A stretch of 64,000 nt of DNA from a bacterium (GTDB lineage Bacteria; Patescibacteriota; Minisyncoccia; Phycocordibacterales; UBA2100). The notes beneath the pieces were generated by a model. It was given only the letters and a program-made list of their open reading frames with translations. It did no database searches and was not told the DNA's origin. The translations under genes and the position numbers were made by a program. The stretch is taken from positions 103,451 through 167,450 of the forward strand of contig JAYPJF010000002.1 of the NCBI GenBank assembly GCA_038128225.1. Reading direction: 5' to 3'. Below, piece after piece: positions 2,776 to 25,303 of this stretch; positions within the stretch are counted from its first letter, which is position 1; each line of letters starts with the position of its first letter.

Positions 2776-3738
2776 ATGGGTTTCTTTAAGGATCTGTTCG
2801 GCGGCAGTTCCGAGTCCGCGCCGCCGGTTGTTCCCGTTCCCACCGTGGAGGACGATCCGTACTACGATCGGAACAATGACCCGGCGATGGGCATCTTCGA
2901 CGGCGGCACGATCGCCGCTATGTTGAAGGCTGGCCAGAATCTGGCGGTCGGCGATACTGCCGAGAACCAGTGGAGCGGGAACGACGAAATTGTCGAGGCG
3001 ATCGCCCAGTACTGGGGCGCCGAAGTCCCGAACCTGGCCGCGATCGCCGACGAAGGCGTCGGCCCCGTCAACGACTGGCTCAAGCAGCATGGCGTCGACC
3101 TCGCGCTTCAGAACCAGGGTCCCGGCCTGTATATGGCCGCGGTCCAGAGCGCGACGATGTTCTGGAGCCAGGCCGGCAGGGCGGCTGAGCTCGACATCCC
3201 CTCAATGGGGGAGCGTGTTCCGGGGTTCGTCCTCGAGGGCGAGCAGGTCGAGGTCTTCGAAGACCTCGACGGTCATCCTTTCGCTCGCATCGCGACGAAG
3301 GATGGGTCCCACGTCTACGTGTGCCCGCTGCCCGAGGAGTATGAGCCTGTCGGCGGCATCGGGCTCATTGATGCCGCTCGCGCTCTCGTCGAGATGACGC
3401 AGGAGGCGAAGCAGAGCCGGAATTACTCCGGCATCCACCTACCCTGTGTCGACTACACGGGAGGGTGCAAGCTCACGGCGCTTCTCGGGATGAACCTCGG
3501 GTCGCTTGAGATCAAGGAGGCGCTCACGGCGCTTTCGCTCAAGATGAACCGGTTTGGTGCGGCCGACAAGGTCGCATCCGCTGCCGGTGGATTCGAGAGT
3601 ACGCCCGCTCCCGCCCTCGTGGTCGACAGCGCCTTCTTCTACTTCAGGACGGCGCCGGGGAGCGATCTGCCGCTCGTCACGGCGGTGATTCCGGTTTCTG
3701 GCTTCAAGGATCCTGGTGACGACGCCATTGCGGCGTAG
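2776..3738 (+). CDS. hypothetical protein encoded by a high-GC (Actinobacteria-like codon usage) gene; likely horizontally acquired
   Basis: Strong SD (AAAGAGGAGAAACCTC) before the ATG. GC and GC3 are clearly higher than in flanking genes. No family recognised from motifs (PYYDRNNDP, HVYVCPLPEEYEPVGG). Confidence 0.6.
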   Translation: MGFFKDLFGGSSESAPPVVPVPTVEDDPYYDRNNDPAMGIFDGGTIAAMLKAGQNLAVGDTAENQWSGNDEIVEAIAQYWGAEVPNLAAIADEGVGPVNDWLKQHGVDLALQNQGPGLYMAAVQSATMFWSQAGRAAELDIPSMGERVPGFVLEGEQVEVFEDLDGHPFARIATKDGSHVYVCPLPEEYEPVGGIGLIDAARALVEMTQEAKQSRNYSGIHLPCVDYTGGCKLTALLGMNLGSLEIKEALTALSLKMNRFGAADKVASAAGGFESTPAPALVVDSAFFYFRTAPGSDLPLVTAVIPVSGFKDPGDDAIAA

Positions 3739-3831: not shown

Positions 3832-3907
3832 GGGCCCGTAGCTCAGCTGGTAGAGCGCTGCATTCGCATTGCAGAGGTCAGGGATTCGATCTCCCTCGGG
3901 TCCACCA
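3832..3907 (+). tRNA. tRNA-Ala (anticodon CGC), CCA encoded
   Basis: Manual cloverleaf: acceptor GGGCCCG/CGGGTCC; D-arm GCTC..GAGC; anticodon stem CTGCA/TGCAG with loop TTCGCAT; T-arm AGGGA-TTCGATC-TCCCT; 3' ACCA. Confidence 0.85.
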
Positions 3908-8434: not shown

Positions 8435-9729
8435 AGAAGATCGCGCGCGCTATCATTTTGTACCTCATTACGGTTGAAGCAAAACTTGTGCTCAAAAAGT
8501 ACAAGCCCACGATTGTGGGGGTGACAGGGAGCGTTGGCAAAACATCGGCGAAAGACGCAATCCATGCCGTACTTGCGGAGCAGTTTTACGTTGCAAAAAG
8601 TAAGAAAAGCATGAACAGTGAATTTGGTGTCCCCCTTTCTATTCTCATGCGCGAAAGCGGGTGGGGAAGCCCGTTCAGTTGGATCATGTCGCTTTGGGAA
8701 GGGGCAACGCTCATTCTATTCAAGAATCACTATCCCAGCGTACTCGTGCTTGAAGTCGGGGCGGATCACCCAGGGGACATTGGAGCAATTGCGGGATGGA
8801 TACAGCCGCAAGTTGCAGTGGTGACAGGTGTTCCTGATGTACCGGTGCACATCGAATTTTTTGGTTCCGTAGAAGAGGTTGCGCGCGAAAAGCGAAAGTT
8901 GGTGGAAGCAACAACTTCGAAGGGTGCTGTTGTTCTCAATGGAGATGATGCGCGTGCGTATGAAATGCGCAAAGGAGTTCCTGGCAAAGTGTACTCATAC
9001 GGGTTTGGCACCCACAACGAAATCCACGCCTCACATGTAGAAACGATGTACGAAGGGCAGGTACCGCATGGCGTGCGATTCCGCATCAATCATCGAGGCT
9101 CTTCGGTGCCAGTTGCGGTACAAGGGGCCTTGGGGCACACGCAGGTGTATCCGGCGCTTGCTGCAGCGGCAGTTGGGCTTGCGCTTAAAATGGATTTGGT
9201 AACTATCGGGAAGGGGTTACTGCACTATGAACCTGCGCCAGGGCGGATGCGCATTGTCGCAGGCAGGAAAGGAAGCACGATCATCGATGATACGTACAAT
9301 TCATCTCCCGCCGCAATGGTCTCCGCACTGGCGACACTTAAGACTATCCAAGGTCCTGGGCGCAAGTATGCCCTTTTGGCTGACATGAAAGAGTTGGGGA
9401 AATTTAGTGACGATGCGCACGCGCGGATTGGCGCGGAAAGCGCACACGGAATTGACTGGCTTGTCACCGTAGGGGAACAAGCAAAAGTTATTGCCGAGAG
9501 CGCACGCACGCACGGGCTACATCCCGAGCGCATTACCGAATTTTCTGCACAAGACTCGCAAAAAGCAGGGGAAACAGTTGCGCGCCGCATTGAGCGAGGA
9601 GACATCATTTTAGTAAAAGGCTCGCAAAGTATGCGCATGGAAAAAGCGGTGAAAGAACTCATGGCGGAACCGCTGCGGGCAAAGGAGTTGCTCGTGCGGC
9701 AAAATAGTGAGTGGCTTGCGCGACACTAA
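8431..9729 (+). CDS. murF: UDP-N-acetylmuramoyl-tripeptide--D-alanyl-D-alanine ligase MurF
   Basis: Mur ligase P-loop (VGVTGSVGKTS). C-terminal GDIILVKGSQSMRME typical of MurF. ATGA overlap with the ftsI stop. Confidence 0.85.
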   Translation: MKKIARAIILYLITVEAKLVLKKYKPTIVGVTGSVGKTSAKDAIHAVLAEQFYVAKSKKSMNSEFGVPLSILMRESGWGSPFSWIMSLWEGATLILFKNHYPSVLVLEVGADHPGDIGAIAGWIQPQVAVVTGVPDVPVHIEFFGSVEEVAREKRKLVEATTSKGAVVLNGDDARAYEMRKGVPGKVYSYGFGTHNEIHASHVETMYEGQVPHGVRFRINHRGSSVPVAVQGALGHTQVYPALAAAAVGLALKMDLVTIGKGLLHYEPAPGRMRIVAGRKGSTIIDDTYNSSPAAMVSALATLKTIQGPGRKYALLADMKELGKFSDDAHARIGAESAHGIDWLVTVGEQAKVIAESARTHGLHPERITEFSAQDSQKAGETVARRIERGDIILVKGSQSMRMEKAVKELMAEPLRAKELLVRQNSEWLARH

Positions 9730-9731
9730 TC

Positions 9732-9995
9732 ATGGAAAAAGAAAAACCCTTCTACGGTAGTGAACGCGAAGCGCGTACTGCACCGGGAGAAATCTACAGA
9801 CATTACAAGGGCGGCATTTATCGCCTGGTGGCGCGCGATGTACTGCATAGCGAAACAGAAGAGCTCGGAGTTGTGTATGAACATTTGTGGCCGCACACAC
9901 ATCGGTTTTTCTTCCGCCCCCAAACCATGTTTTTTGACACGTTGCCGCAAGAGAAAGGTGGAGGGAAACGATTCGCGCTACTCAAAAAGTCGTAG
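9732..9995 (+). CDS. DUF1653 family protein
   Basis: YRHYKGGIYRLV...EHLWPHT motif typical of DUF1653. Confidence 0.55.
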   Translation: MEKEKPFYGSEREARTAPGEIYRHYKGGIYRLVARDVLHSETEELGVVYEHLWPHTHRFFFRPQTMFFDTLPQEKGGGKRFALLKKS

Positions 9996-10034
9996 TTTGA
10001 ATTTGCCAGTTTTTGTTTTATGATGTTTGCCTAA

Positions 10035-10106
10035 GGCCCTATCGTCTATCGGCTAGGACGCGACCCTCTCACGGTCGAAAGCGGGGTTCGATTCCCCGTA
10101 GGGTCA
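10035..10106 (+). tRNA. tRNA-Glu (anticodon CTC), no encoded CCA
   Basis: Manual cloverleaf: acceptor GGCCCTA/TAGGGTC; D-arm GTC-TATCGGCTAG-GAC; anticodon stem CGACC/GGTCG with loop CTCTCAC; T-arm CGGGG-TTCGATT-CCCCG; discriminator A. Confidence 0.8.
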
Positions 10107-10269
10107 TCGGTTTAGGAAAATACTCCGGCTTGCCGGAGTATTTTCGTAGACCGAACGATGATGCCTTGGAGGCAAATCGAACGGCCGGACCGAGCAAAGC
10201 GAGGGAGGTGGGCTCGCGACTTTTTGCGTAGCAAAAAAGTTGTGAGGCGATTCCCCGTAGGGTCATCGG
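10089..10269 (+). repeat. 31-bp direct repeat (CGATTCCCCGTAGGGTCATCGGTTTAGGAAA): copy 1 = tRNA-Glu 3' end plus 13 nt (10089-10119), copy 2 at 10239-10269. The two copies flank a 119-bp palindrome-rich spacer.
   Basis: Exact duplication seen in the sequence. The spacer contains AAAATACTCCGGC-TTGC-GCCGGAGTATTTT and CTTTTTGC-GTA-GCAAAAAAG inverted repeats. Confidence 0.8.
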
Positions 10270-10294
10270 TTTAGGAAAGTCACAAGGCAGTAAG

Positions 10295-10328
10295 TATTCC
10301 ATGTAACAAAAAACAGCGGCCCACGAGT
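10295..10328 (-). terminator. rho-independent terminator for the minus-strand gene ending at 10349
   Basis: Minus strand reads CAGCGGCCCAC-TCG-TGGGCCGCTG followed by TTTTTTGTT. Confidence 0.7.
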
Positions 10329-10348
10329 GGGCCGCTGTGCGTTCTGCA

Positions 10349-11353
10349 TCATCCAATGAGGATCTTTCGGAGAGATGCAAGTGTCTCTTCAGCTTGTGCG
10401 GTCGAGGGATCGGTCACCACCGCTTGTAGAGTGGCAAACTCTGACCTCGCACTACTCAGGCGCGCCTGCGCACGCTCAATTTCTGATTCGAGTTCAGCGA
10501 TTTCTTTTCTGAGAGCCGACAAAGCTTGGCCGTGTTGTTTGGCGCCTTCAACAATCTGCGAAAGTCGCACGACCTCCGAAAGTAAGTCGCGTGGCAGCGA
10601 CGGTGCCTCTTTTTCCTCTTTGCCGACAGGTGATGTTTCGGCGGGCTGTGTCACCACTGCAAGCGTTGGTGCCGTTCTTACATGTCTAAGCCATTTGTCC
10701 CCAATGATCAGCAAAGATGCAACTTTCCCCGGCTTGAGATCGCCACCAGCGATGAGTGCCACAATGTCGGCCTCACAATTCATGCGATCCAGCCGCGTGA
10801 GGATGTCGATGCAGACCTCACGAGGGATCACACCTGCATTAGTCGCTTTTGCAACAGCCTCCTCGAAGAACAGGGTAATTGCCTCATTTGTCAGAGGCGT
10901 TGGCTCTACAACTGTTAGCGTGCTTTGTAATGGCGTCGGTTCTGAGGTATCGTGCGCGCCTTGGTCTGCCTTCTCGGCTGTGGAAGAGGCGTCTTTTATT
11001 TTGCCCAACCTTTTTTCGAGGGCAGCATAAAACGCTTCTGGCTCCATCCCATACGGTGTCACAACCTGCAGTGAGTATCTGGCATCGTTGCCGCCGGACT
11101 GCCAGCGGATTTCGACTGATCTTCGTTGGGTATTTGGCAACCCTAGTTGGAGTCCTTTGGCGTGGGGTCCTCCCTTAATCCTGCCTTCGACTATCGCGGT
11201 AAACGTTCCGGACATTCCGCACTCGAGTAAGACTTGTGCCAACGCTGCTCTGAAGTTTTTGTCAGGGCCAAAGTCCCGTACGATCCTTTCTTTTCCACTC
11301 AAAATTACCTGTACTACGGGGGTGGCATGTTTAGGATTAGCGTGTGTGCTCAT
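10349..11353 (-). CDS. hypothetical protein with C-terminal coiled coil (island gene)
   Basis: Start chosen at the ATG with SD GGAGAGAG (MSTHANPKH...). C-terminal heptad-rich region (LRKEIAELESEIERAQARL). Transcribed divergently from the DUF262 gene. Confidence 0.5.
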   Translation of the reverse strand: MSTHANPKHATPVVQVILSGKERIVRDFGPDKNFRAALAQVLLECGMSGTFTAIVEGRIKGGPHAKGLQLGLPNTQRRSVEIRWQSGGNDARYSLQVVTPYGMEPEAFYAALEKRLGKIKDASSTAEKADQGAHDTSEPTPLQSTLTVVEPTPLTNEAITLFFEEAVAKATNAGVIPREVCIDILTRLDRMNCEADIVALIAGGDLKPGKVASLLIIGDKWLRHVRTAPTLAVVTQPAETSPVGKEEKEAPSLPRDLLSEVVRLSQIVEGAKQHGQALSALRKEIAELESEIERAQARLSSARSEFATLQAVVTDPSTAQAEETLASLRKILIG

Positions 11354-11583
11354 CACTCTCTCCATGATGACTGGTTCGTTATAAGGCAAAACGCACCACA
11401 TCGGGTGGCATTTTCCACCAAGAGTGTAACACTTGACAGCTGATTTGACAAATGTCGCTATACATCTTAGCATGCCTCGCAAGACTAGCGTCTCGCGGGT
11501 CTTCTCGGGTGCCAACGCAAAAAAAGTCGTTGGGGGACACCCGGGTGTTCCTTGACAAAGTAGTCCAAACCGAAGGATAGGAA

Positions 11584-12675
11584 ATGTCAAACATCCAGCC
11601 TGTCAAACTGTTCAATGCGGCGCTTGACGATGCAACAGACAGCCCCGCCGGAGTTGTTCTGCGTGGAGCTCTTGATCTGGGATCGTTGCATCACTTGCTT
11701 CGCGATGACTATCAGCGTGAGGCACAGCCGCTCACTGCGCAGTGGCGCATCCTTGATGCGTTGCAGAAGCGTACCCGCCTTCCTGATGTTGATCTCGGCA
11801 TGCGGGGAGAGGAGTTCACGACCCGTGATGGATCGTTCTTCCTCAAAGACCCGACGTACATCATTGACGGCGTCCAGCGCATCTCGACGATTATCCACTT
11901 CGTGAACACGAATCCGGGTGTTGACGTTCGCATCGGTGCGACCGTCCATCTGAATACGACAAAGGAGTGGGAGCGCGAGCGCTTCCACAGGCTCAACAAC
12001 TGGCGGAGTAAGCTTTCACCCAACATCCTGCTGCGCAACATGCGGGAGAGCAACGCCGGGGTCCTGATGCTCTATAGTATCTCGACAAACGACAAGGTGT
12101 TTCCATTGCGCGGTCGCGTGTCATGGAACCAGCGCATGACCAAGGGCGAACTCACTACCGCGCTCACGTTCGCGAAAACGGTCGCGTACTTGCACGGCCA
12201 CAAGGTGTCCTCGCACCGCAACAACGTCGAGGAGATCGGCATCGGCTTGCAGAAACTCGTCGACGTAGTCGGCATTCAGGCACTTCGCGAAAATATCCGC
12301 ACCTTCTTCGATCTCATCGACACATGCTGGGGGATCAAGAGCGTGCAGTACAAGGAGAGCGCGATCTACATGCGAGGGCAGTTCTTGTTCGTACTCGCGC
12401 GACTTCTGTCAGATCACTATGACTTCTGGCAGGATGACGCGGAGAAGCGGCTGTTCGTCGGCGCTGATCTGCGGCGGAAGATCGCCCAATTCCCGATTCA
12501 CGATCCGGAGGTGGTCCGTCTTGCTGGTTCCTCTGGCGCGGCTCGGCAGATCCTCTACATCTTGCTTCGTGATCACATCAACAAGGGCAAGACCACGAAG
12601 AGGCTTTCGCCGCGCTCGACGGCCACGACGGCGGATCTCAGTGACGACGATGAGGACGATGCCAAAGCCGCGTAA
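11584..12675 (+). CDS. DndB/DUF262-like ParB-nuclease-domain protein (DGxQR motif), acidic C-terminal tail
   Basis: YIIDGVQRIST matches the DGQQR/DGQHR signature of the DUF262/DndB ParB-like nuclease family. Size is about DndB-like (363 aa). Higher GC than the host backbone. Confidence 0.55.
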   Translation: MSNIQPVKLFNAALDDATDSPAGVVLRGALDLGSLHHLLRDDYQREAQPLTAQWRILDALQKRTRLPDVDLGMRGEEFTTRDGSFFLKDPTYIIDGVQRISTIIHFVNTNPGVDVRIGATVHLNTTKEWERERFHRLNNWRSKLSPNILLRNMRESNAGVLMLYSISTNDKVFPLRGRVSWNQRMTKGELTTALTFAKTVAYLHGHKVSSHRNNVEEIGIGLQKLVDVVGIQALRENIRTFFDLIDTCWGIKSVQYKESAIYMRGQFLFVLARLLSDHYDFWQDDAEKRLFVGADLRRKIAQFPIHDPEVVRLAGSSGAARQILYILLRDHINKGKTTKRLSPRSTATTADLSDDDEDDAKAA

Positions 12676-12806
12676 GCGCAGGGCGCTCGTTGCCAAAGGG
12701 CGTCGCCTAATTCGGGCTGCGAGAATAAACATTGGCATTGCACGGAAACGCATCAATGAGATGCGTCGGATCCTTGCAAGAACTCCAAGAACTCGCTGAC
12801 AAAACG

Positions 12807-12843
12807 CTCCGGCTGGTATCGCACCAGCCGGAGCATTTTTTTG
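12807..12843 (+). terminator. rho-independent (possibly bidirectional) terminator
   Basis: CTCCGGCTGGT-ATCGC-ACCAGCCGGAG followed by TTTTTTTG. A second GC hairpin with a T9 run follows at 12862-12898. Confidence 0.65.
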
Positions 12844-12895
12844 TGCACGTATTTCATAATGAGAGCCGGCGCCGCATCGCAGCGCCGGTTTTTTT

Positions 12896-13363
12896 TTACG
12901 GGTTTCCCATCTGTGTCTCCAGGTCTTCGATTTCCTCCACACTCAAAAACCGAAGCCATGTCAGAATCAAGACGTAGTCTGGCATGTCGGAGAAGACATG
13001 ATGCTCGTCGCTCCGCACCACTTTATAACTTTCCACGGCTGCCATGCCGCGCATGACCACTTCACCTTCGACAAACACCCACGCATGAATTTCATCCGGC
13101 GAAACAATGTCGGCAACGCCAGACGCAACTACGGCATCAAAAAGACCAACAAATGAGGCACCTGGTGACAGGTGCGCTTTTTTGTCAGGTCTGACGAAAA
13201 GCGTTACAGCAGTATTTGCCTGATTGTTGCCGGCGAGCTCTATGCCACCAACAAAACCAGGAATCACATGTTGGTCGGTTGTACGCGCGATGAACTGGGC
13301 GACATCGCTCTCATCCGTTGGGCGCTCCCATGAAATGCGCAAAAGCACATTTGATAGACGCAT
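12896..13363 (-). CDS. hypothetical protein (156 aa)
   Basis: ATG with SD AGAGGAG (MRLSNVLLRISWERP...). No family recognised. Confidence 0.45.
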   Translation of the reverse strand: MRLSNVLLRISWERPTDESDVAQFIARTTDQHVIPGFVGGIELAGNNQANTAVTLFVRPDKKAHLSPGASFVGLFDAVVASGVADIVSPDEIHAWVFVEGEVVMRGMAAVESYKVVRSDEHHVFSDMPDYVLILTWLRFLSVEEIEDLETQMGNP

Positions 13364-13382
13364 GGTAGTCTCCTCTGGGTTT

Positions 13383-13577
13383 TTAGAAACGCATTCGTGA
13401 CGCAAGTCTTGCCGCAAGGTCTGTGAGATCAAGCGGCAGGCCGAGCCATTTTTTGGTTTCGGTTTGCTGCTTCAGCGCAGCGAGTCGTTCATCGACCTCT
13501 TTGTCGCGACGATAGGGGTTCCATATCACCACAACCACAGCCAACACAAGAACTATAAGTCCACTGATTTCGGCCAT
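13383..13577 (-). CDS. small membrane protein (64 aa, one TM)
   Basis: SD GGAAGGAGA before the ATG; hydrophobic helix LIVLVLAVVVVIW; 20 nt upstream of the 156-aa gene. Confidence 0.45.
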   Translation of the reverse strand: MAEISGLIVLVLAVVVVIWNPYRRDKEVDERLAALKQQTETKKWLGLPLDLTDLAARLASRMRF

Positions 13578-13728
13578 GTGTTTCTCCTTCCGCTCGACAA
13601 GATACTATTTTGTGGTGTTATTTGCAAGCGTACTCTCATTAGGTAGTTAGATTAATAACAGGTTAAAAGAAAGCCCCCGCGCTCAAAAAATTTGCGCGGA
13701 GGCTCAAGGAATCAAGAGGGACAAGCCC

Positions 13729-14529
13729 TCAAGCGTTCAAGGGTCGCCTCCGGGAGGAGGACAAGCCCATGTCGGAGTTGCGCTCGACATTCCACCAGCG
13801 GCTGACGATGAGCCCGTGAGCGCCGAAGTAACCGACGTAGACGCGGCTACCGCCCGAGTCCAGACTCGACGTGCGGACGTAGATGCCCGGCAGCAGATAG
13901 ACGTTCCTGACCGCCTTGTACGAAGTGAGACACCAGGCGACCTCGGCGACGTTGGGCACCATCTCCTCGTCGGAGAGAAGCGCCCGCTGTTCGTTCCAGT
14001 TCTTCGAGGTGGACTCGGGGACCGGCTCTTTGCGGAGCATGAGCCACCGGGTCTCGACCTTGTCGTTCTGGGCGAATGCCTTCTCCGCGTACCAGCCGCC
14101 GTCCTTCGAGTAGAAATGGTCCTTCTTCACGGCGCGAACGTTGAGAAGGGACATCGGACGGTTGGGACCGGCGACGAGCATGTAGCCGTTGTCGCGGCAC
14201 CACTCCAGCACTTCCTGCGCGGGCACGGAGTCGCCGAACTGCGCGAGCTGCTCGTCGGTGTAGACGATTGGCTTGCGCGACTTGGCGATTTCCTCCGGCG
14301 CGATGAAGTCCTTGCCGAGGATGGTACGGGCGAGGCTGTAGTCCGGCGTCTTCGCCGTGAACCGGCGAATGCCCGCGAGCACGTGCGTCTGGAACTCGCC
14401 GCCGCGCTCCAAGAGCCGTTGGAGACCGTCCTTGTCGGGATTGATCTCCTTGAGCGCCTTGTCGGTGGCGTCGTCCACGAAACGCTTGAACTGCTTCTGC
14501 TGGTGAGGCGTGATCGAACGAATCGTCAT
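13729..14529 (-). CDS. hypothetical protein (267 aa), high GC
   Basis: SD AGGAGAAAAGCG before the ATG (MTIRSITPHQQKQFKRF...). The large antisense ORF on + is a GC-driven shadow. A terminator hairpin lies downstream at about 13672-13700. Confidence 0.5.
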   Translation of the reverse strand: MTIRSITPHQQKQFKRFVDDATDKALKEINPDKDGLQRLLERGGEFQTHVLAGIRRFTAKTPDYSLARTILGKDFIAPEEIAKSRKPIVYTDEQLAQFGDSVPAQEVLEWCRDNGYMLVAGPNRPMSLLNVRAVKKDHFYSKDGGWYAEKAFAQNDKVETRWLMLRKEPVPESTSKNWNEQRALLSDEEMVPNVAEVAWCLTSYKAVRNVYLLPGIYVRTSSLDSGGSRVYVGYFGAHGLIVSRWWNVERNSDMGLSSSRRRPLNA

Positions 14530-14710
14530 CGCTTTTCTCCTTTGCATAGCCGGAATCGCTCCGGCGGGGTTTACCACACGTAGACCCGTTTCAGGTCGTC
14601 CTTCCGAACGATCCCGAGGTGATTACATTATATTAATATGGAATTGTCAAATCATGTTCCAAACAGGAGATTTTGATAGTTGGGAGTGAAGTTTTTAGCT
14701 AAAGCAACAA

Positions 14711-15961
14711 TCAGTGAGCACTCGTTTTTGTAATTTTGTAAATTGCACCTGCGCGGTCGTCAGATACAAACGCAACACCTCCGGGTTCGGCAAGAATGTC
14801 TACGGGTCGGCCGATTGCATCATCGGGATCGTTGGTAGAGAGAAATCCGGCAAGGAAGTCGGTTGGTGCAGTGGTTACGTTTCGTTCACTATCGAGATTG
14901 AAACGTACGATCTTGTATCCACTCGGTTCTGAGCGGTTCCATGAACCATGGTATGCAACAAGTACATCGTTGCCCCATCCGTCGGGCCAACCTTCTTCAG
15001 GTACAAATGAGAGTCCAAGTGCTGCCACATGGGCTGGAAGCTCAATATGCGGCGCGCGTGTGTCTTCACAAGGGTCGCGTACATAGTGGTTTCGATCGTA
15101 ATCAATGTCATGGACTTTGTTGCCATAGCAAATCGGCCACCCATAATTTCCTCCGCGCTCGATGATATTCACCTCGTCGGGAGGAATGTCGTCGCCGATA
15201 AGATCGCGCCCGTTGTCCGTGCCCCAGAGTGAACCGTCCACCGGATCAGTTGCCATAAACACCGTGTTGCGCAAGCCGCGCGCAAAGGTTGTCATCGACT
15301 CACTTTCAAGATCATATGCCTGCACGGTGGCGCGCTGCGGATCTTTTTCATCGCATACATTACAGGAGGAGCCGATGGAAATAAGCAACGTTTTTCCGTC
15401 TGGGTGACGCAGCAAGGTGCGCGTGTAGTGACCGCCACCATTGGGAAGCTGCGCGTGTAACCGCATGTCATACACGGAAACGGTGTCTGCGTCATAGCGA
15501 TACGAGCGCAGCGCGTTCGCTTCGGCGACAAAGAGGCGACAGCTGTCTTGGTCTGCGCTCGCGTTTCCCGTTGTGTCACAGATCATCGCGAGCCCGTGAG
15601 GTTGTTTCAAGGCATTAAGAACAGTCACTTTGCTTTCTGCGATGCCGTCGGCATCGAGGTCTTGAAGCGCAACAACGCTCCCATGTTTAGTCAACGAAAC
15701 AAGTAAAGCACCTTTGGGGTCGCGAATCATGACACGCGCACCAGGCACGTCGCGCGAAAAAATGCTAATCGCAAAACCTTCAGGGACCTTGAGTGGTAAA
15801 TCTTCACTGAGTGGCAGGGGAGGCGGCTGAGATGTTTTTGTTGCGACTGCCAACAGAAACCCTGGCGGTGTTTCTACGACGAAGCGGTACATACGGTAGC
15901 CACCCCATGCCAAGAGCGTGAGGGCAATTGCTACAATAATTATCCATGCCCATGCGCGCAT
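14711..15961 (-). CDS. PQQ-dependent sugar dehydrogenase-like beta-propeller protein (soluble aldose dehydrogenase/YliI family), N-terminal membrane anchor
   Basis: N-terminal TM (AWIIIVAIALTLLAWGGY); GGNYGWP and HGSWNRS motifs typical of glucose/sorbosone dehydrogenase beta-propellers. Confidence 0.7.
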   Translation of the reverse strand: MRAWAWIIIVAIALTLLAWGGYRMYRFVVETPPGFLLAVATKTSQPPPLPLSEDLPLKVPEGFAISIFSRDVPGARVMIRDPKGALLVSLTKHGSVVALQDLDADGIAESKVTVLNALKQPHGLAMICDTTGNASADQDSCRLFVAEANALRSYRYDADTVSVYDMRLHAQLPNGGGHYTRTLLRHPDGKTLLISIGSSCNVCDEKDPQRATVQAYDLESESMTTFARGLRNTVFMATDPVDGSLWGTDNGRDLIGDDIPPDEVNIIERGGNYGWPICYGNKVHDIDYDRNHYVRDPCEDTRAPHIELPAHVAALGLSFVPEEGWPDGWGNDVLVAYHGSWNRSEPSGYKIVRFNLDSERNVTTAPTDFLAGFLSTNDPDDAIGRPVDILAEPGGVAFVSDDRAGAIYKITKTSAH

Positions 15962-20097: not shown

Positions 20098-20322
20098 TCA
20101 CAAGTGACGAAAAATTCGCCGCCGCATTTTTGGGATAAAAAATCTTTATACACATATTGTTCACATCTTCTCCACGCAATTCACAATTGACCGCTTGCAT
20201 TAATGCGCGCGATGATTCTAACGGGACTATTCTTTTGCTGCGCGCGGCGCGTGCGCTACTCCGCGGGCAGCACGGGAAAGTTTTCATTATTAAGTTTACA
20301 AGTTTTTAATTTAACAAATTGC

Positions 20323-21240
20323 ATGAATAGAATTCTTTTGAGTTTGGGTGTGATTGCATTTGTGGGTGCCGCAGCTGCAGGTGCAACGGGCGCGTTCTTC
20401 AACGACACAGAAACGTCGACAGGAAACACGTTTGCTGCAGGAGATATCGATCTTCAGATTGATAGCGTCGCGCACTACAACGGAATGGTGTGTACTTTAG
20501 TTGGAAACACCTACCACTGGATTCCAGAAAGCGATGTGACTTTGGATCAAAATATGCAACCAGTTGCGGATGTGGATATGAACGAGCAGACAGAGTGGGA
20601 CGTATTCAATACTGCGAATCCGACCCAATATCCAGAGGCAGGTACTGCGTGTCAAGGTACGTGGCCGGTAGGCAATCTCGACGAAAACACACTCGGCATG
20701 GACGAGTTTTTCAACTTCTCCGATATTAAGCCAGGTGATAATGGGGAAAACACGGTCTCGGTTCACGTGGGAAGCAACGATGCGTGGATGTGTGTCTCAA
20801 TCGCGAATATTGCGGATGCAGACAACACATGTACTGAGCCTGAGGATAGCGAAGTTGGAGAGCTTTGTACTGTCAGCGTGCCTGAAAACACTGTAAACGG
20901 TGAGCTCGATTCAAATCTCAACTTCTTCGCATGGCGTGACGACGGAGACAACGTGTTTGAAAGCGGTGAAGTTGCACTTGGCGGGCCGGTTGCCGCAAAT
21001 ACATTGCTCGCTCAATCATGGGCGCTCGCGGAGAGCGGTGATACGCCAATCCCTGGAGATTCCACACAATATATCGGTCTTGCATGGTGCGCAGGCACAA
21101 TGAGTGTCGTGGGCAACACAATCTCATGTAATGGGTCAGGTATGAGTAACCTTGCTCAAACTGATTCATGGGGGGCGGATCTGACGTTCTACGTAGAACA
21201 GTCCCGAAACAATCCGAATTTCCTCTGTAATCAAGATTAA
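20323..21240 (+). CDS. TasA/CalY (camelysin, peptidase M73)-like secreted protein with SipW-cognate class signal peptide, paralog 1
   Basis: N-terminus MNRILLSLGVIAFVGAAAAGATGAFFNDTETSTGNTFAAGDIDLQIDS. Conserved blocks FFNFSDIKPGDNGENTVSVH, AWRDDGDNVFESGE, YIGLAWCAGT, NLAQTD...FYVEQSRNNPNFLC. Confidence 0.75.
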   Translation: MNRILLSLGVIAFVGAAAAGATGAFFNDTETSTGNTFAAGDIDLQIDSVAHYNGMVCTLVGNTYHWIPESDVTLDQNMQPVADVDMNEQTEWDVFNTANPTQYPEAGTACQGTWPVGNLDENTLGMDEFFNFSDIKPGDNGENTVSVHVGSNDAWMCVSIANIADADNTCTEPEDSEVGELCTVSVPENTVNGELDSNLNFFAWRDDGDNVFESGEVALGGPVAANTLLAQSWALAESGDTPIPGDSTQYIGLAWCAGTMSVVGNTISCNGSGMSNLAQTDSWGADLTFYVEQSRNNPNFLCNQD

Positions 21241-21347
21241 CTAGTCTCTCTAGCCGTACTACGCTCGATTCGTTCGAGCGTAGCGGGCTGAAGGGATAAG
21301 TCTCACAGCGATTAGCCAGGTTGGATTATTAAACTCAGAAAATCTGC

Positions 21348-22826
21348 ATGAAAAGAATCTTATTAAGCCTTGGAACAATCGTGTTTATTGGCGCAAGCGT
21401 TGTAAGTGCAACAGGCGCATTTTTCAATGACACAGAAACGTCGACAGGAAACACGTTTGCTGCAGGAGACATCGATCTTCGAATCGACAATGAAAGTTAT
21501 GCTACTAACAACGCGGGGGTGCTTGTCGCGAGCCCGAATAATTCGTGGGCGCTTTCAGATCTGACCAGCCAGTTATTTTTCAGTTTTGACGATCTCAAAC
21601 CGGGAGACATCGGGGAGGACACGATCTCGGTACACGCGGGGTCAAATGATGCCTGGGCATGTATGGCAGCAGACATAACCGCAACGCCAGACAATGGCAT
21701 AAACGAACCAGAAGCAGACGCCGGTGACGTAACCGACGGCGCACAAGGTGGTGAACTTCAAAATTATCTCAATTTCGTATTTTGGCGTGACGACGGAGAC
21801 AACGTGTTTGAAAACGACGAAGCGCAAATTACACAATGGGTTGGCCAGGCAGGCACCTTGTTTAACGGCGCGTGGGCACCGATTGCTGATGCGCAAAACG
21901 GCGCTGTTATTTCTGGAGGGACAACACGCTACGTAGGCAAGGCATGGTGCTTCGGCACGCTCGCAGCCGCTGCAGTTGCTCAAGACGGACAAGGCAAAAC
22001 GGGAAACAACGGCCCGCTCGCGCGCGGCACAGGATTTACGTGTTCAGGTGTGGGCAATCAAAACAACGCGCAGACAGACGGCGTCCTCGTTGACGTTTCA
22101 TTCTATGCAACACAGGCTCGCAACAATGGAAGCTTCGTATGTTCCTCATTGGCGCCGTTTGCGGGCAGTAGCACCGTTGTTGAAATTACGGAGAGTGCAC
22201 TCTCAGAATCACCGAGTGACTTGCTCGCAGCTCCTAACTCGTGGCTCTTCTACAATGACACCAACGATACAATCATGACGATTGATCAGTTTGCGCCGAA
22301 TGGCGAAAACCACATGGACACTATTGCGGGTGCCGAGGGTGCAAAGATGCTTCTTGCGGACGCTTCAAGTCGCTACAACATTGCAACGTATAAGTACAAA
22401 GATGTGAAATTGAGCGATATCAACTCGCTTAAGTACCGCATATACGACGGCTCTGCTTCAGCTGAGACACCGTACCTGCACTTCAATGTTGACTTCGTAA
22501 ACAACGACACGTGGCAGCGACGCTTGGTGATGGTGCCAACGGGTGTTGTCGCAAATACATGGACTACTGTTGATGCGATTGCCGGTGGCACAGCACTGTG
22601 GACCTACTCAGGAACTTTCTGGCCCGCAGGTTCAACCAGCAACGGCTCGATTCCTGGCGCAACAGCACGTTCGTGGAATGACATTCTTGCCGATTACCCG
22701 AATGCGGAGACACGCTCGACCGATTCATTCTTCGGTGTTCGCGTTGGTCATCCAGGACCAGCGGGGGAGACCGGGTATGTGGACTGGGTTGAGTTCAACG
22801 GAGAGACAAGTGATTTCGTCCAGTAA
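21348..22826 (+). CDS. TasA/CalY-like secreted protein with SipW-cognate signal, paralog 2 (long C-terminal extension)
   Basis: MKRILLSLGTIVFIGASVVSATGAFFNDTETSTGNTFAAGDIDLRIDN and the same conserved blocks (FFSFDDLKPGDIGEDTISVH, FWRDDGDNVFENDE, YVGKAWCFGT, FYATQARNNGSFVC). Extra C-terminal domain of about 230 aa. Confidence 0.75.
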   Translation: MKRILLSLGTIVFIGASVVSATGAFFNDTETSTGNTFAAGDIDLRIDNESYATNNAGVLVASPNNSWALSDLTSQLFFSFDDLKPGDIGEDTISVHAGSNDAWACMAADITATPDNGINEPEADAGDVTDGAQGGELQNYLNFVFWRDDGDNVFENDEAQITQWVGQAGTLFNGAWAPIADAQNGAVISGGTTRYVGKAWCFGTLAAAAVAQDGQGKTGNNGPLARGTGFTCSGVGNQNNAQTDGVLVDVSFYATQARNNGSFVCSSLAPFAGSSTVVEITESALSESPSDLLAAPNSWLFYNDTNDTIMTIDQFAPNGENHMDTIAGAEGAKMLLADASSRYNIATYKYKDVKLSDINSLKYRIYDGSASAETPYLHFNVDFVNNDTWQRRLVMVPTGVVANTWTTVDAIAGGTALWTYSGTFWPAGSTSNGSIPGATARSWNDILADYPNAETRSTDSFFGVRVGHPGPAGETGYVDWVEFNGETSDFVQ

Positions 22827-22940
22827 TTCGTCTTTAGCCGCACTCGACATTCTGGCAGAGCCAAAGTGTCGAGCGGGCTGAAGGAGAAGGCGTCTTTTCA
22901 GCAAGGTCTTTTAACAAGTTCAGTTTAAGCATTACACAGT

Positions 22941-24404
22941 ATGCGCAGAATATTTCTGAGTGTTTTGACGATCGTGGCAGTCGGCGGTGCAGTAATTGGC
23001 GGAACGGGTGCGTTTTTTAGTGACACGGAAACAGCTACGGGAAATTTGTTTACCGCAGGTGCACTTGATTTGAAAGTTGACAATGATAGCTACTACAACG
23101 GGAATCGTTGTACGTTTCTTGATGCGCAGGCAACAACGTCACCTGGCTTTTACTGGCAGGGAAATGCCGTGTACCCGGTGCCAGGTTCACCTTGTGAGAC
23201 CTCGTTTCCTGAATCAGACCTTGACGACGGACGCCTCTTCTTTAATTTCACCGACATGAAGCCAGATGATGAAGGTGAAGACACAATCTCCTTGCATGTA
23301 CAAAACGACGCCTGGGCGTGTCTCGATGTTTCTCTCACGTCAAACGACGATCGTTCAACGACCGAACCTGAAGGCCAAGTCGATGCTCTTGAAGATATAA
23401 ACAACACATGGGATGGGGAGCTCGCACAAAATCTGCAATTTTATTGGTGGGCAGACGATGGAGACAATGTATACGAAACGGGAGAAAATTCGCTCACTAA
23501 CGGGCAAGTGATGTCTCTTATGGATCTTGCGAGCACCAGCGGCATGTTTTCAGTGCCACTCGCAGATTCAACTCAAAACGCGTGGGGTGTAGGCGGTCCA
23601 CTTCCTGCTAATCAGGTAATGTATATTGGTAAAGCGTGGTGTTTCGGAACGCTCACACTTGATCCGGTTCCTGCAGGGCAGGGCGTGAATCCTACAGTTG
23701 ACCCAGGGGTGAACTGTGACGGAACTGCGCTCACCAACCTCACTCAGACCGATGGCGTGACGCTCGATATGGCTTTCCGCACGGTTCAGGCGCGCAATAA
23801 CCGCAACTTCGTATGTTACGAGGATACAACTCGCGCAACAATCACTGTGGTAAAGCAAATTACGAATGACAATGGCGGCAACAATGTTGTTGCAGACTTC
23901 CAGCTCTTCTTGGACAACGGCGTAGTGACGATTCCAGTTACTTCTGGCGCGGGGAACGTGGTTAGCGGTGGAACCTACACAGTTGCCGAGACCGGCGTTC
24001 AAGGGTATGTCGGATCGTTTATTCAAGGACCTGGCCAAGACTGTGACGCGAATGGCCAAGTGACCATTGCAGCGGGGGAAAGCAAAACATGTGTCCTCAC
24101 AAACAACGATCTTCCTGCAACTATCACGCTTGTGAAAAACGTAACGGGAACACCACCGCTTGCGAGTCCGACGGTGTTCGGTCTGAACATCGACGGCGGC
24201 TTGGTGCCGCACAACACCTCGGTGCAGGTTTCGGCAAACACACCGCATCTAATTAACGAAGCAGGTCGTGCAGGGTACACCTTCTCAGGACCAATCACTG
24301 GTACATCAAACTATGGCCAGTCATGTCCGGCAGTATTAGGAGGCTCTGTAACGCTTGCTGAAGGGGAAGCGATCACGTGTACGATTACCAACAATAAGAA
24401 TTAA
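22941..24404 (+). CDS. TasA/CalY-like secreted protein with SipW-cognate signal, paralog 3, with two C-terminal Ig-like beta-sandwich repeats
   Basis: GGTGAFFSDTETATGNLFTAGALDLKVDN and conserved blocks. C-terminal tandem repeats ITVVKQITNDNGG...TYTVAETGVQGY...TCVLTNNDLPATITLVKNV...TCTITNN. Confidence 0.75.
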   Translation: MRRIFLSVLTIVAVGGAVIGGTGAFFSDTETATGNLFTAGALDLKVDNDSYYNGNRCTFLDAQATTSPGFYWQGNAVYPVPGSPCETSFPESDLDDGRLFFNFTDMKPDDEGEDTISLHVQNDAWACLDVSLTSNDDRSTTEPEGQVDALEDINNTWDGELAQNLQFYWWADDGDNVYETGENSLTNGQVMSLMDLASTSGMFSVPLADSTQNAWGVGGPLPANQVMYIGKAWCFGTLTLDPVPAGQGVNPTVDPGVNCDGTALTNLTQTDGVTLDMAFRTVQARNNRNFVCYEDTTRATITVVKQITNDNGGNNVVADFQLFLDNGVVTIPVTSGAGNVVSGGTYTVAETGVQGYVGSFIQGPGQDCDANGQVTIAAGESKTCVLTNNDLPATITLVKNVTGTPPLASPTVFGLNIDGGLVPHNTSVQVSANTPHLINEAGRAGYTFSGPITGTSNYGQSCPAVLGGSVTLAEGEAITCTITNNKN

Positions 24405-24409
24405 CGCGT

Positions 24410-25303
24410 ATGGTTACGCGGGTAGCAGCTCGGGCAACAATCGCAACGGTCGTTGCGGTTGTTGCAATAGCTGCATACACCGCGCGTGGTGTTGAGCCGG
24501 GGATTACGTTTGCAACACAAGGTATCGACCTCAAAATTGACAGCAAAGCGTGGTACAACGGCGCACTCGTTCCTTCGGCGACGTGGGCTTTGAAGAATCT
24601 TGTTCCTGGGTCTGACAAGTTTTTCAATCTCACCGATATAAAACCCGGGGATACCGGTTGCAATGTGATCTCGATGCACATTCAGAAAAAAGATGCATGG
24701 ATGTGTTTGGACTTCAAAAACTTGCAGCAAAGCGAGAATGGCGTGAACGAACCGGAATCGAGCGCAGACACCACAAGTGGAGCGGGTGACCTTGCGGACG
24801 GGCTCGAGTTTTTTGGCTGGGAAGACGATGGAGATGGGAAGTTTGAGCCACCGCGCGAGCAGACTCTTTTTGGCACAACAACACAAGCAGCGTCGTACGT
24901 GTTTAATAACAAAACATATGTCATCGGTGATTCACGGCGTGGCAATATATGCCGGAAAGATACAGTGCGCTTTGTCGGCATGTGTTGGTGCGCGGGGAAT
25001 CTCAGTGTGAATTGGATTGCCGGAAAAACGAGCTGTGATGCAACTGCGCTAGGCAACGAAGCACAAACAGACACGATGAGTGTTGATGTGGAGATTCGTG
25101 CCGAACCCGCACAAGACAAGCCTAAGTTTGTATGCGGCACAACACCGCCAGGAAACGGTGGCACTAACCCACCTGCTGTGCCACCTGCACCTTCGCCAAC
25201 CACGACACCACCAACTACGAATAAGCTTCAAGATCTCATAACCGACCTACTCAACCGCACTGGTTCGATTCGTGATCGCATCCCCGTGATCCCACGACCA
25301 TAG
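24410..25303 (+). CDS. TasA/CalY-like paralog 4 with divergent N-terminal signal and Pro/Thr-rich C-terminus
   Basis: Shares FFNLTDIKPGDTGCNVISMH, FFGWEDDGDGKFE, FVGMCWCAGN, NEAQTD...KPKFVC. The N-terminus lacks the FFxDTE motif. 5-nt gap after paralog 3 and a 1-nt gap before the peptidase gene. Confidence 0.65.
   Translation: MVTRVAARATIATVVAVVAIAAYTARGVEPGITFATQGIDLKIDSKAWYNGALVPSATWALKNLVPGSDKFFNLTDIKPGDTGCNVISMHIQKKDAWMCLDFKNLQQSENGVNEPESSADTTSGAGDLADGLEFFGWEDDGDGKFEPPREQTLFGTTTQAASYVFNNKTYVIGDSRRGNICRKDTVRFVGMCWCAGNLSVNWIAGKTSCDATALGNEAQTDTMSVDVEIRAEPAQDKPKFVCGTTPPGNGGTNPPAVPPAPSPTTTPPTTNKLQDLITDLLNRTGSIRDRIPVIPRP

Follow-up and report, generated by a model that had tools for sequence, protein, structure and literature searches.

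Gene content and setting of the segment downstream of tRNA-Glu(CTC)

The segment under study spans positions 10035–14600 of a 64-kb window (the whole 64,000-nucleotide stretch of contig JAYPJF010000002.1 that was analyzed), which is a housekeeping region of a Patescibacteria/Paceibacterota chromosome belonging to the candidate phyla radiation (CPR), encoding UvrC, Ddl, MraW, FtsI, MurF, ATP synthase and several aminoacyl-tRNA synthetases. The segment opens with an intact tRNA-Glu gene with anticodon CTC (10035–10106, plus strand; ARAGORN; Rfam tRNA score 52.7 bits) and continues with five genes designated A (10349–11353, minus strand), B (11584–12675, plus strand), D (12896–13363, minus strand), C (13383–13577, minus strand), and E (13729–14529, minus strand). 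A preliminary description had viewed these genes as one degraded genomic island of about 4.3 kb that inserted at the tRNA gene and may serve defense or DNA modification. The data presented here instead favor a mosaic accessory patch that arose by several separate events at a breakpoint downstream of MurF-DUF1653-tRNA-Glu(CTC), a reading to which a probability of approximately 0.7 is assigned. Many of the individual features described earlier were recovered, including the upstream tRNA-Glu, the coiled-coil protein (A), the DGxQR ParB-type protein (B), the small protein with a putative transmembrane helix (C, the hydrophobic N-terminus of which was read from the sequence), terminator hairpins after A (10313–10338) and between B and D (12801–12839), and the absence of a remaining integrase among the open reading frames (ORFs) of the segment that were scanned.

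The nearest MurF proteins in scans of two large collections of genome and metagenome contigs were only 45–51% identical to that of the window. Synteny was taken from homologs of D, and the two closest relatives are L155 and L153; the L-numbers denote the relative contigs or loci that were retrieved. All named relatives of the window are metagenome-assembled genomes of Paceibacterota or other CPR bacteria. The same strain was also recovered at 99.8–100% identity in Logan assemblies from four sequencing runs. The tRNA-Glu(CTC) gene is a backbone anchor that is linked to MurF-DUF1653. MurF followed by tRNA-Glu(CTC) in the orientation of the window is kept in the distant relatives L002, L005, L006, L012, and L041, the last of which also retains DUF1653. 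Downstream of the tRNA gene, synteny is lost in every relative.

Two genes account for the elevated GC content

The segment has a GC content of 0.554 compared to 0.507 ± 0.017 for stretches of equal length, which places it in the top 0.08% and makes it effectively the maximum of the window. The rise in GC reported previously therefore is genuine, but had been attributed to the wrong unit. Without B and E, the GC content of the segment is 0.522. The GC content at third codon positions (GC3) of the genes in the window is 0.505 ± 0.058, and the values for A (0.51), D (0.54), and C (0.52) resemble this background, with codon-usage z-scores of 0.3 for A and 1.1 for D; the score for C is not meaningful at 64 amino acids. 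In contrast, GC3 is 0.73 for B (z = 2.3) and 0.86–0.88 for E (z = 7.7). As B and E alone carry atypical composition and A, C, and D look native, these two genes sum up to the raised GC of the segment and there is no block-wide shift. The comparison of GC3 and codon usage thus singles out B and E, whereas A and D behave like the background and a uniform island signature is lacking.

The large antisense ORFs that had been offered as the best evidence of a compositional change do exist, at 10356–11030 (224 amino acids) and 13816–14583 (255 amino acids). The latter is in the antisense frame that is codon-aligned with E, where a long ORF is to be expected at a GC3 near 0.87. This frame stays open in any gene that avoids codons ending in A. 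The antisense ORFs were rejected as real genes because such a frame is expected from the high GC3 and because they match no Pfam family.

A duplication of the tRNA-Glu 3′ end

A perfect direct repeat of 31 nucleotides includes the 3′ end of the tRNA-Glu gene; no such repeat was expected from 100 shuffles. The first copy (10089–10119, plus strand), which resembles an att core, consists of the final 18 nucleotides of the tRNA gene and 13 nucleotides of flanking DNA. The second, attR-like copy (10248–10278, plus strand) is a tRNA 3′-end fragment without the remainder of the tRNA. Immediately upstream of the second copy, resemblance to the tRNA ends suddenly, as would suit a recombination junction more than a tandem tRNA gene that has decayed. 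The two copies enclose a spacer of 128 bp (10120–10247) that probably is the remnant of an integrated and later deleted element, or else a miniature element. An exact match to neither a 27-mer of the att-like sequence nor a 25-mer of the spacer was found in IMG/VR, and neither an integrase nor a recombinase domain was detected when the five genes and 10 additional ORFs from the segment were scanned (ORFs of at least 50 amino acids). A third copy of the repeat also was sought by local alignment of the tRNA and its flank with 12600–13000, 13560–13760, 14560–14760, and other intergenic stretches. None was found near the B/D, C/E, or E/GSDH junctions, where scores were ≤24 compared to a maximum of 29 in random windows.

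The relative L113 bears on the extent of the integration. In this genome homologs of A and B come immediately after a tRNA-Glu(TTC) gene whose 3′ half is identical, and the 31-nucleotide duplication is missing. As the repeats in the window enclose only 128 bp and as L113 possesses the tRNA-A-B arrangement without a duplication, the repeat is best read as the product of a separate integration event by an element that would have been lost later, with A and B outside the repeats. The proposal that the tRNA 3′ end served as an integration site thus is upheld by the 31-nucleotide scar, but the scar brackets 128 bp and not 4.3 kb. The region is accessory and variable and is at a synteny breakpoint next to a tRNA gene. 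The locus shares with tRNA-targeted integrative elements a perfect repeat of the tRNA 3′ end and flank, accessory genes downstream, and a breakpoint in synteny. It differs from them in that the repeats enclose just 128 bp, no integrase was found, and the downstream genes lie outside the repeats, are of mixed composition, and include one native gene.

The DNA after the tRNA gene has an unusually strong predicted fold. The 174 nucleotides at 10107–10280 fold at −85 kcal/mol (z = −8.0 compared to shuffled sequences), first into a hairpin of ~23 bp directly 3′ of the tRNA (10107–10154; inverted repeat I2, 23 nucleotides, 91% complementary, with its left arm within the first repeat copy) and then into a long structure that includes the second copy of the tRNA 3′ end. 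Neither these 174 nucleotides nor the 128-bp spacer matched an Rfam family. Separately, an inverted repeat of 16 nucleotides (94% complementary) brackets the tRNA gene, with arms immediately upstream of the tRNA (9977–9992) and of the second tRNA 3′-end copy (10217–10232). This repeat possibly is left over from the inversion by which the window differs from L155 and L153. Three independent Logan contigs of this strain (L115, L116, and L156) terminate at 10249, where the second repeat copy starts. This break was rejected as biological variation, as it is expected at a 31-nucleotide repeat in an assembly with k = 31.

Gene D belongs to the chromosomal backbone

Gene D encodes a lineage-restricted protein of 155 amino acids with only six homologs among 5.8 billion proteins. 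In both homologs for which the context was retrieved, L155 and L153, the gene is 87–138 nucleotides from tRNA-Glu(CTC), and in L155 the D-tRNA-Glu(CTC) pair adjoins the MraZ-MraW-FtsL-FtsI-MurF cluster. The D protein is 52–55% identical to the L155 and L153 homologs, which is comparable to values for the backbone proteins MurF (48%), FtsI (56%), and MraW (53%). Adjacency to tRNA-Glu(CTC) in these relatives, backbone-like divergence, and native composition together establish D as a native, lineage-specific chromosomal gene. The C-terminus of the protein shows a weak match to Pfam Transglut_core3 (E-value 0.0015) that is below the cut-off, and a sequence search of the PDB yielded nothing meaningful. 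Gene order is lost after the tRNA in all relatives, but D persists beside it in L155 and L153.

The D gene and the tRNA gene are contiguous in L155 with nothing between them, whereas A and B occupy this position in the window. Moreover, A, B, C, and E are all absent beside D and tRNA-Glu(CTC) in L155 and L153, which are relatives at ~50% MurF identity. Gene C, a 64-amino acid ORF with a hydrophobic N-terminal helix that also was gene-called in the Logan contigs of the same strain, ends 20 nucleotides upstream of D with which it probably is co-transcribed. A homolog of C was not found in any fetched locus, and the gene probably is native and lineage-specific. The convergent genes B and D are separated by a bidirectional terminator (12801–12839; inverted repeat I6, 17 nucleotides, 94% complementary; 12 pairs in the terminator scan) that is flanked by an A-run and a T-run.

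Genes A and B are a divergent pair

Gene A, the transcription of which diverges from that of B, encodes a protein of 334 amino acids; no family could be assigned to its N-terminal domain, and its C-terminus is a coiled coil. Searches of Pfam, NCBIfam, and PADLOC with A returned coiled-coil matches only. The family, which evolves rapidly, comprises 66 representative clusters and is very divergent. A profile of the A family matched only ORFs that are beside B in the closest clade of B homologs (L060, L113, and L114). Within this clade homologs of A are 36–42% identical compared to 77–84% for B. The order tRNA-Glu, A (minus), B (plus) is shared by the window and L113, and A and B also are paired in L060. 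However, A is absent from most loci that include B, among them all phage loci, and one homolog of A occurs without B on a short contig (L159).

The intergenic region between A and B (11354–11583) contains promoter-like hexamers arranged back to back, at 11445–11473 on the plus strand and 11451–11423 on the minus strand. A stem-loop or palindrome with the pattern AAGACyrGC-loop-GCrGGTyTT is located ~60–110 nucleotides upstream of the B start in all three A-B genomes (~11480–11510 in the window, ~1406–1448 in L113, and ~8380–8420 in L060). This motif could be an operator or an element of the 5′ untranslated region. The promoter-like sites and the palindrome are compatible with regulation of the A-B pair by B. 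The pair is situated between the tRNA and D in the window, in a manner that suggests insertion as a unit separate from D.

Protein B belongs to the DGQHR/DUF262 superfamily

Protein B (363 amino acids) carries the motifs YQR (residues 43–45), DGVQR (95–99), and FxxxN (134–138), and its C-terminal part comprises a helical extension (…DHINKGKTTKRL) together with an acidic tail. Across 40 homologs there is no variation in Y43-Q44-R45, D95-G96-x-Q98-R99, or F134-xxx-N138. According to PMC4619093, DGQHR domains are defined by a QR pair, a DGQHR-type pentapeptide, and FxxxN, and these elements are found again in DUF262. The family includes at least 349 relatives (clusters) with a uniform length of ~355–370 amino acids, none of which possesses a Pfam domain, and nearly every relative with a named source is labeled as Paceibacterota/Pacebacteria or other CPR bacteria. 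The protein is under strong purifying selection, with a ratio of nonsynonymous to synonymous divergence (dN/dS) of ~0.1 at a synonymous divergence (dS) of 1.0–2.0.

Profile matches to B were consistent with these motifs but did not reach the cut-off of any family. The TIGR03187 model matched residues 90–275 (E-value 7.7e-5; 22.6 bits compared to a cut-off of 58.85) and 23 of the 40 family members tested, with a best E-value of 1.2e-6. The GmrSD_N domain (PF03235) gave a weak score of 18.2 bits relative to a cut-off of 33.2 and matched 15 of 40 members, DndB (PF14072) matched two of 40 with a best E-value of 0.0015, and TIGR03233 was not matched. Searches of Pfam and NCBIfam revealed no DUF1524/HNH domain in B or the 40 homologs. 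The AlphaFold2 (AF2) model of B (pLDDT 87.7) retrieved pNOB8 ParB-N, PadC, BrxU, and sulfiredoxin from the PDB with Foldseek at weak E-values, whereas in BFVD the hits were viral proteins annotated as DUF262, ‘DNA-sulfur modification-associated’, or ParB-like, with E-values down to 3e-7 and TM-scores of 0.3–0.5; the viral DUF262 proteins matched at 1e-5 to 1e-7. The helical extension had no match among solved structures, and a sequence search of the PDB with the entire protein produced nothing meaningful. Thus, B belongs to the ParB/Srx-fold DGQHR/DUF262 superfamily and is foreign in composition, but is neither DndB nor GmrSD proper. Judged from its predicted fold and motifs, it most likely is a nucleoside triphosphate (NTP)-dependent DNA binding, and possibly nicking, protein of phage or mobile-element origin.

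The genomic context of B differs in each genome. The gene is beside A in the window, L113, and L060, but is between a peptidase gene and AlaRS in L063. In L061 (9005–9851) a homolog that is 67% identical is preceded by a serine recombinase (Resolvase) gene and a small helix-turn-helix (HTH) gene and is followed by tRNA-Gln, which is the sole B locus seen with a recombinase. Homologs that are 37–57% identical also were found on 32 IMG/VR contigs where they neighbor genes for phage DNA primase/polymerase, exonuclease, sliding clamp, ligase, HNH, and sigma-factor proteins; GenBank phages provided no match. A conserved partner of B was not evident across 36 loci, in which only groups of related phages were collinear.

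The family relationships of B, together with its differences from characterized systems, are instructive for the suggestion of a DndB-like or defense context. B shares with DGQHR/DndB proteins (TIGR03187, TIGR03233, and PF14072) the three signature elements and a size of ~360 amino acids similar to that of DndB, and it is transcribed divergently from its neighbor in the manner of a DndB-type regulator. In contrast, its motif is DG(L/V)QR and not DGQHR, its profile scores are below the cut-offs, and it bears the additional helical extension and acidic tail. Genes of the dnd (including dndACDE), dpd, ssp, brx, and pbe types were not found in the 64-kb window, nor were genes of DNA-modification operons detected beside the homologs in L060, L061, L063, and L113. 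The predicted ParB/Srx fold and the DGxQR motif of the NTP-binding type also are reminiscent of the DUF262 domains of GmrSD, BrxU (PDB 7P9K/7P9M), and SspE. Nevertheless, B does not include the DUF1524/His-Me nuclease domain, is a solo protein of ~360 amino acids outside any defense-island neighborhood, and its model aligns with BrxU at TM-scores of only 0.24–0.28.

A more restricted version of the defense proposal is that A and B form a small two-gene defense or conflict module on a mobile element that reaches tRNA-Glu genes, in which B would be an NTP-dependent DNA sensor or nuclease akin to the N-domains of GmrSD, BrxU, and SspE, and A a specificity or effector subunit that diversifies rapidly. 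The fold and motifs of B, which are of the DUF262 type, the low identity among A homologs relative to B which is reminiscent of an arms race, the location of the pair downstream of tRNA-Glu genes in two genomes, and the proximity of B to tRNA-Gln and a resolvase gene in L061 all agree with this idea. However, a recognizable nuclease domain of the DUF1524/HNH or other type is missing from B, the two genes frequently occur apart as described above, the PADLOC matches are weak with those of A reflecting its coiled coil only, and the phage copies of B reside in replication modules, which suits a role in DNA metabolism as well as one in defense or counter-defense. A two-gene module of this kind is viewed as unlikely.

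Protein E is a variable protein of the diversity-generating retroelement type

Protein E (266 amino acids) consists of a helical N-terminal part and a C-terminal domain similar to C-type lectins and FGE. The family has >300 members of ~262 amino acids, is confined to CPR bacteria, and contains no Pfam domain. The AF2 model (pLDDT 88.3) of the C-terminal domain was matched by Foldseek to the C-terminal domain of Bd2740 (probability 0.99, TMt 0.62), EgtB/SenA, TvpA, and FGE. As all Foldseek E-values were 0.04 or weaker, the predicted C-type-lectin-type fold is held with moderate confidence. Neither GenBank phages nor IMG/VR provided a match to E, and nothing meaningful emerged from a sequence search of the PDB.

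The identity of the family is revealed by L120, which encodes an E homolog that is 74% identical. This locus possesses a variable repeat (VR; 10664–10780) and a template repeat (TR; 11146–11262) of 117 nucleotides each that are 365 nucleotides apart and differ by 17 mismatches, of which 16 are at adenines of the TR. An RVT_1 reverse transcriptase (RT) gene follows at 11656–12732. The combination is a textbook diversity-generating retroelement (DGR). The corresponding 117-nucleotide segment of E in the window (13747–13863, minus strand) differs from the L120 template at AAC, AAT, and AAG codons, and E carries its own residues at exactly the TR-adenine positions. The same pattern was apparent across 36 family members: column entropy was 2.36 bits at the 17 codons with A in positions 1 and 2 of the L120 TR compared to 0.71 bits at the 22 other codons (Mann-Whitney p = 1e-5). 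The 3′ flank of E (13665–13728, minus strand) comprises a CTTGAGGGCTTGTCCC motif followed by a GC-rich terminator hairpin. The CTTGAGGGCTTGTCCC motif after the stop codon is common to other VR flanks, but not to the TR, and on this basis may function in the manner of an initiation of mutagenic homing (IMH) or hairpin element. The data place E in a family of DGR variable proteins, and it is not the uncharacterized partner in a defense module that the 267-residue protein of the preliminary description had been proposed to be.

Other properties of E agree with this assignment. The E protein shares the predicted C-type-lectin/FGE-like C-terminal domain with TvpA of Treponema denticola (PDB 2Y3C) and with the ‘clade 2’ DGR targets from CPR bacteria described by Roux et al. 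(2021; PMC8144416), although its sequence similarity to solved C-type-lectin proteins is nil. DGR targets in CPR bacteria reportedly are without recognizable domains as a rule (PMC8144416), and E likewise has no other. As in established DGR variable proteins, the 74% identical homolog bears a VR at its 3′ end with a TR that differs by adenine-specific mismatches and an adjacent RVT_1 gene, and the family is hypervariable at the TR-adenine codons. E in the window departs from other DGR targets in two respects: the whole gene, and not the VR alone, is poor in adenine at third positions (A3 of 0.03), and neither a TR (self-BLAST of the E 3′ end) nor an RT (tblastn with the L120 RT) was present within 64 kb. 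Furthermore, the VR at 13747–13863 is identical in L116, L117, and L158, which were assembled from three different runs and represent the consensus level; positions 14082, 14093, and 14568 are the only differences in or near E among assemblies. As a TR and RT were not found in the window and the VR is identical in three assemblies, E appears to be an orphan DGR target that either is a fossil or is served in trans from outside the 64 kb. The L118 locus illustrates that the cassette around this family does decay: an E homolog (10001–10786) is accompanied by a 28-amino acid RT remnant (9712–9795, minus strand) that shares 68% identity with the C-terminal end of the DGR RT of L120. The decayed DGR thus adjoins an intact target, which has a GC3 of 0.79 in a genome of 42% GC.

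A probable patchwork formed by separate events

The findings can be set against the view with which the segment was first described, namely a single old 4.3-kb island at the tRNA-Glu 3′ end that has lost its integrase and holds a five-gene defense or DNA-modification module around a DUF262/DndB-like protein. The adjacent tRNA 3′ end with its att-like 31-nucleotide repeat, the highest GC content in the window, five genes without confident annotation, the loss of synteny after the tRNA in all relatives, and weak PADLOC matches of B to NsnA and PD-T4-2_A are what such an island might leave. However, D is kept beside tRNA-Glu in two relatives with backbone-like identity, A, C, and D have native composition, and the repeats bracket 128 bp without a third copy having been found. 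As D is part of the backbone, A, C, and D are of native composition, and the repeats enclose 128 bp, the five genes are not one unit. B and E each stand alone in variable contexts and were never together in 36 other B loci and two other independent E loci. Nor did any defense-system model match at a meaningful E-value: among the five proteins no PADLOC match was better than 3e-4, those recorded being confined to coiled coils or motifs, and E is a DGR target instead of a defense partner. Absence of dnd, dpd, ssp, and brx genes from the window and the lack of a conserved partner for B point in the same direction. A single island accordingly is regarded as highly improbable.

The mosaic patch preferred here would have formed as follows. 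Site-specific integration into the tRNA 3′ end would have generated the perfect 31-nucleotide duplication, with 128 bp of the element left between the copies. The divergent A-B pair, by a route that probably involved insertion, came to separate the native gene D from the tRNA. B is presumed to act on DNA alone because it is solo in most genomes, and in the A-B clade it may also control the divergent promoter that it shares with A, by analogy with DndB and its operon. Gene D is native and specific to the lineage, and C probably is as well. In genomes with relatives of E, the RT would copy the TR with adenine-specific errors into the last 117 nucleotides of the gene; this copying would rewrite ~15 residues of a C-type-lectin-like binding surface, and E in the window bears that history.

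Several points weigh against parts of this scheme. The orientation of the tRNA gene relative to D in the window is opposite to that in L155, where the tRNA is inverted relative to MurF, which implies that more than a simple insertion occurred. The argument for insertion of A-B draws on one relative, L155, at ~50% MurF identity. In all three genomes with the pair, A is host-like in composition and B is not, which is awkward for co-transfer. The activity of B is deduced from its fold and motifs, and all of its family scores are below curated cut-offs. For E, consensus assemblies can hide heterogeneity in the VR, and the search for a TR and RT covered 64 kb, such that a trans-acting DGR may reside elsewhere in the genome.

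Every component of the segment is of a type already known from these very small bacteria, and current understanding of DGRs, ParB-like proteins, and tRNA-linked integration is left unchanged. The analysis corrects a plausible but wrong annotation in that an apparent ‘defense island at a tRNA’ is a patchwork, allows one formerly unnamed gene to be named as encoding a DGR variable protein (E), and brings to attention B as a large family of at least 349 clusters in Paceibacterota and phages with a solo ParB/Srx-fold, DGQHR-like protein and no described function.

Persistent GC-rich composition of B and E homologs

Homologs of B and E are rich in GC3 in every CPR host that was examined; for example, an E homolog has a value of 0.79 compared to a mean of 0.33 for the genes of its host. 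This is so even though copies have diverged strongly at synonymous sites, to saturation or close to it (dS 0.8–2.0). Third-position adenine is low (0.03–0.10) in B, E, and a third gene outside the segment, X320. The latter is an ORF of 320 amino acids (2776–3738, plus strand) between Ddl and tRNA-Ala (3832–3907) that is the third strong compositional outlier, with a GC content of 0.641, GC3 of 0.81, A3 of 0.03, and a codon-usage z-score of 5.8. No relative of X320 was found in Pfam, the PDB, or IMG/VR, and a relationship to E was rejected as none was detected when the two were compared. Low third-position adenine is the usual pattern of GC-rich codon usage and hence is not diagnostic.

These observations might be taken to mean that nothing in the segment is foreign: the five genes would be vertically inherited in a rearrangement-prone region, and the high GC3 would be intrinsic to the B and E families through constraints on codon use or mRNA. 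The GC3-rich state of both families in every Paceibacterota host inspected, despite dS of 0.8–2.0, is in keeping with this explanation, as are the large size, uniform length, and purifying selection of the families and the host-like composition of A, the partner of B. However, phage-borne homologs of B follow the GC content of their own contigs, from a GC3 of 0.46 at 0.43 GC up to 0.91 at 0.65 GC, which counts against a constraint inherent to the family and favors an origin from GC-rich phages or mobile elements. Moreover, the contexts of B and E differ in every genome, B in L061 has resolvase and HTH genes beside it, the equivalent site of L155 lacks A-B, and DGR cassettes are known to move (PMC8144416). 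Purely vertical inheritance is thus considered distinctly unlikely, and the accessory nature of B and E within the mosaic is retained.

It can also be speculated that B, E, and X320 belong to a Paceibacterota gene pool that holds a GC-rich, A3-poor composition whatever the GC content of the host, although this is very doubtful. Maintenance of composition despite near-saturated dS would need an active process and not a one-off transfer. Chromosomal copies may be replaced recurrently by recombination with phage-borne copies, and for the DGR target occasional RT-mediated conversion may purge adenines well beyond the 117-nucleotide VR. That B and E keep this offset in composition from host to host poses a minor puzzle about gene flow, or RT or recombination activity, in CPR bacteria.

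Other features of the window and the L155 locus

Two further observations were made outside the segment. A gene for a PemK-type toxin is located between FtsI and MurF in L155 (4992–5564), a position at which the window has no such gene. In addition, the window contains a run of paralogous genes at 20203–25303 with repeated segments, such as 20381–20455 and 21406–21480 which are 93% identical. These paralogs are related to a gene at the edge of the L155 locus that adjoins the LTD-domain gene of L155 (12137–12904).

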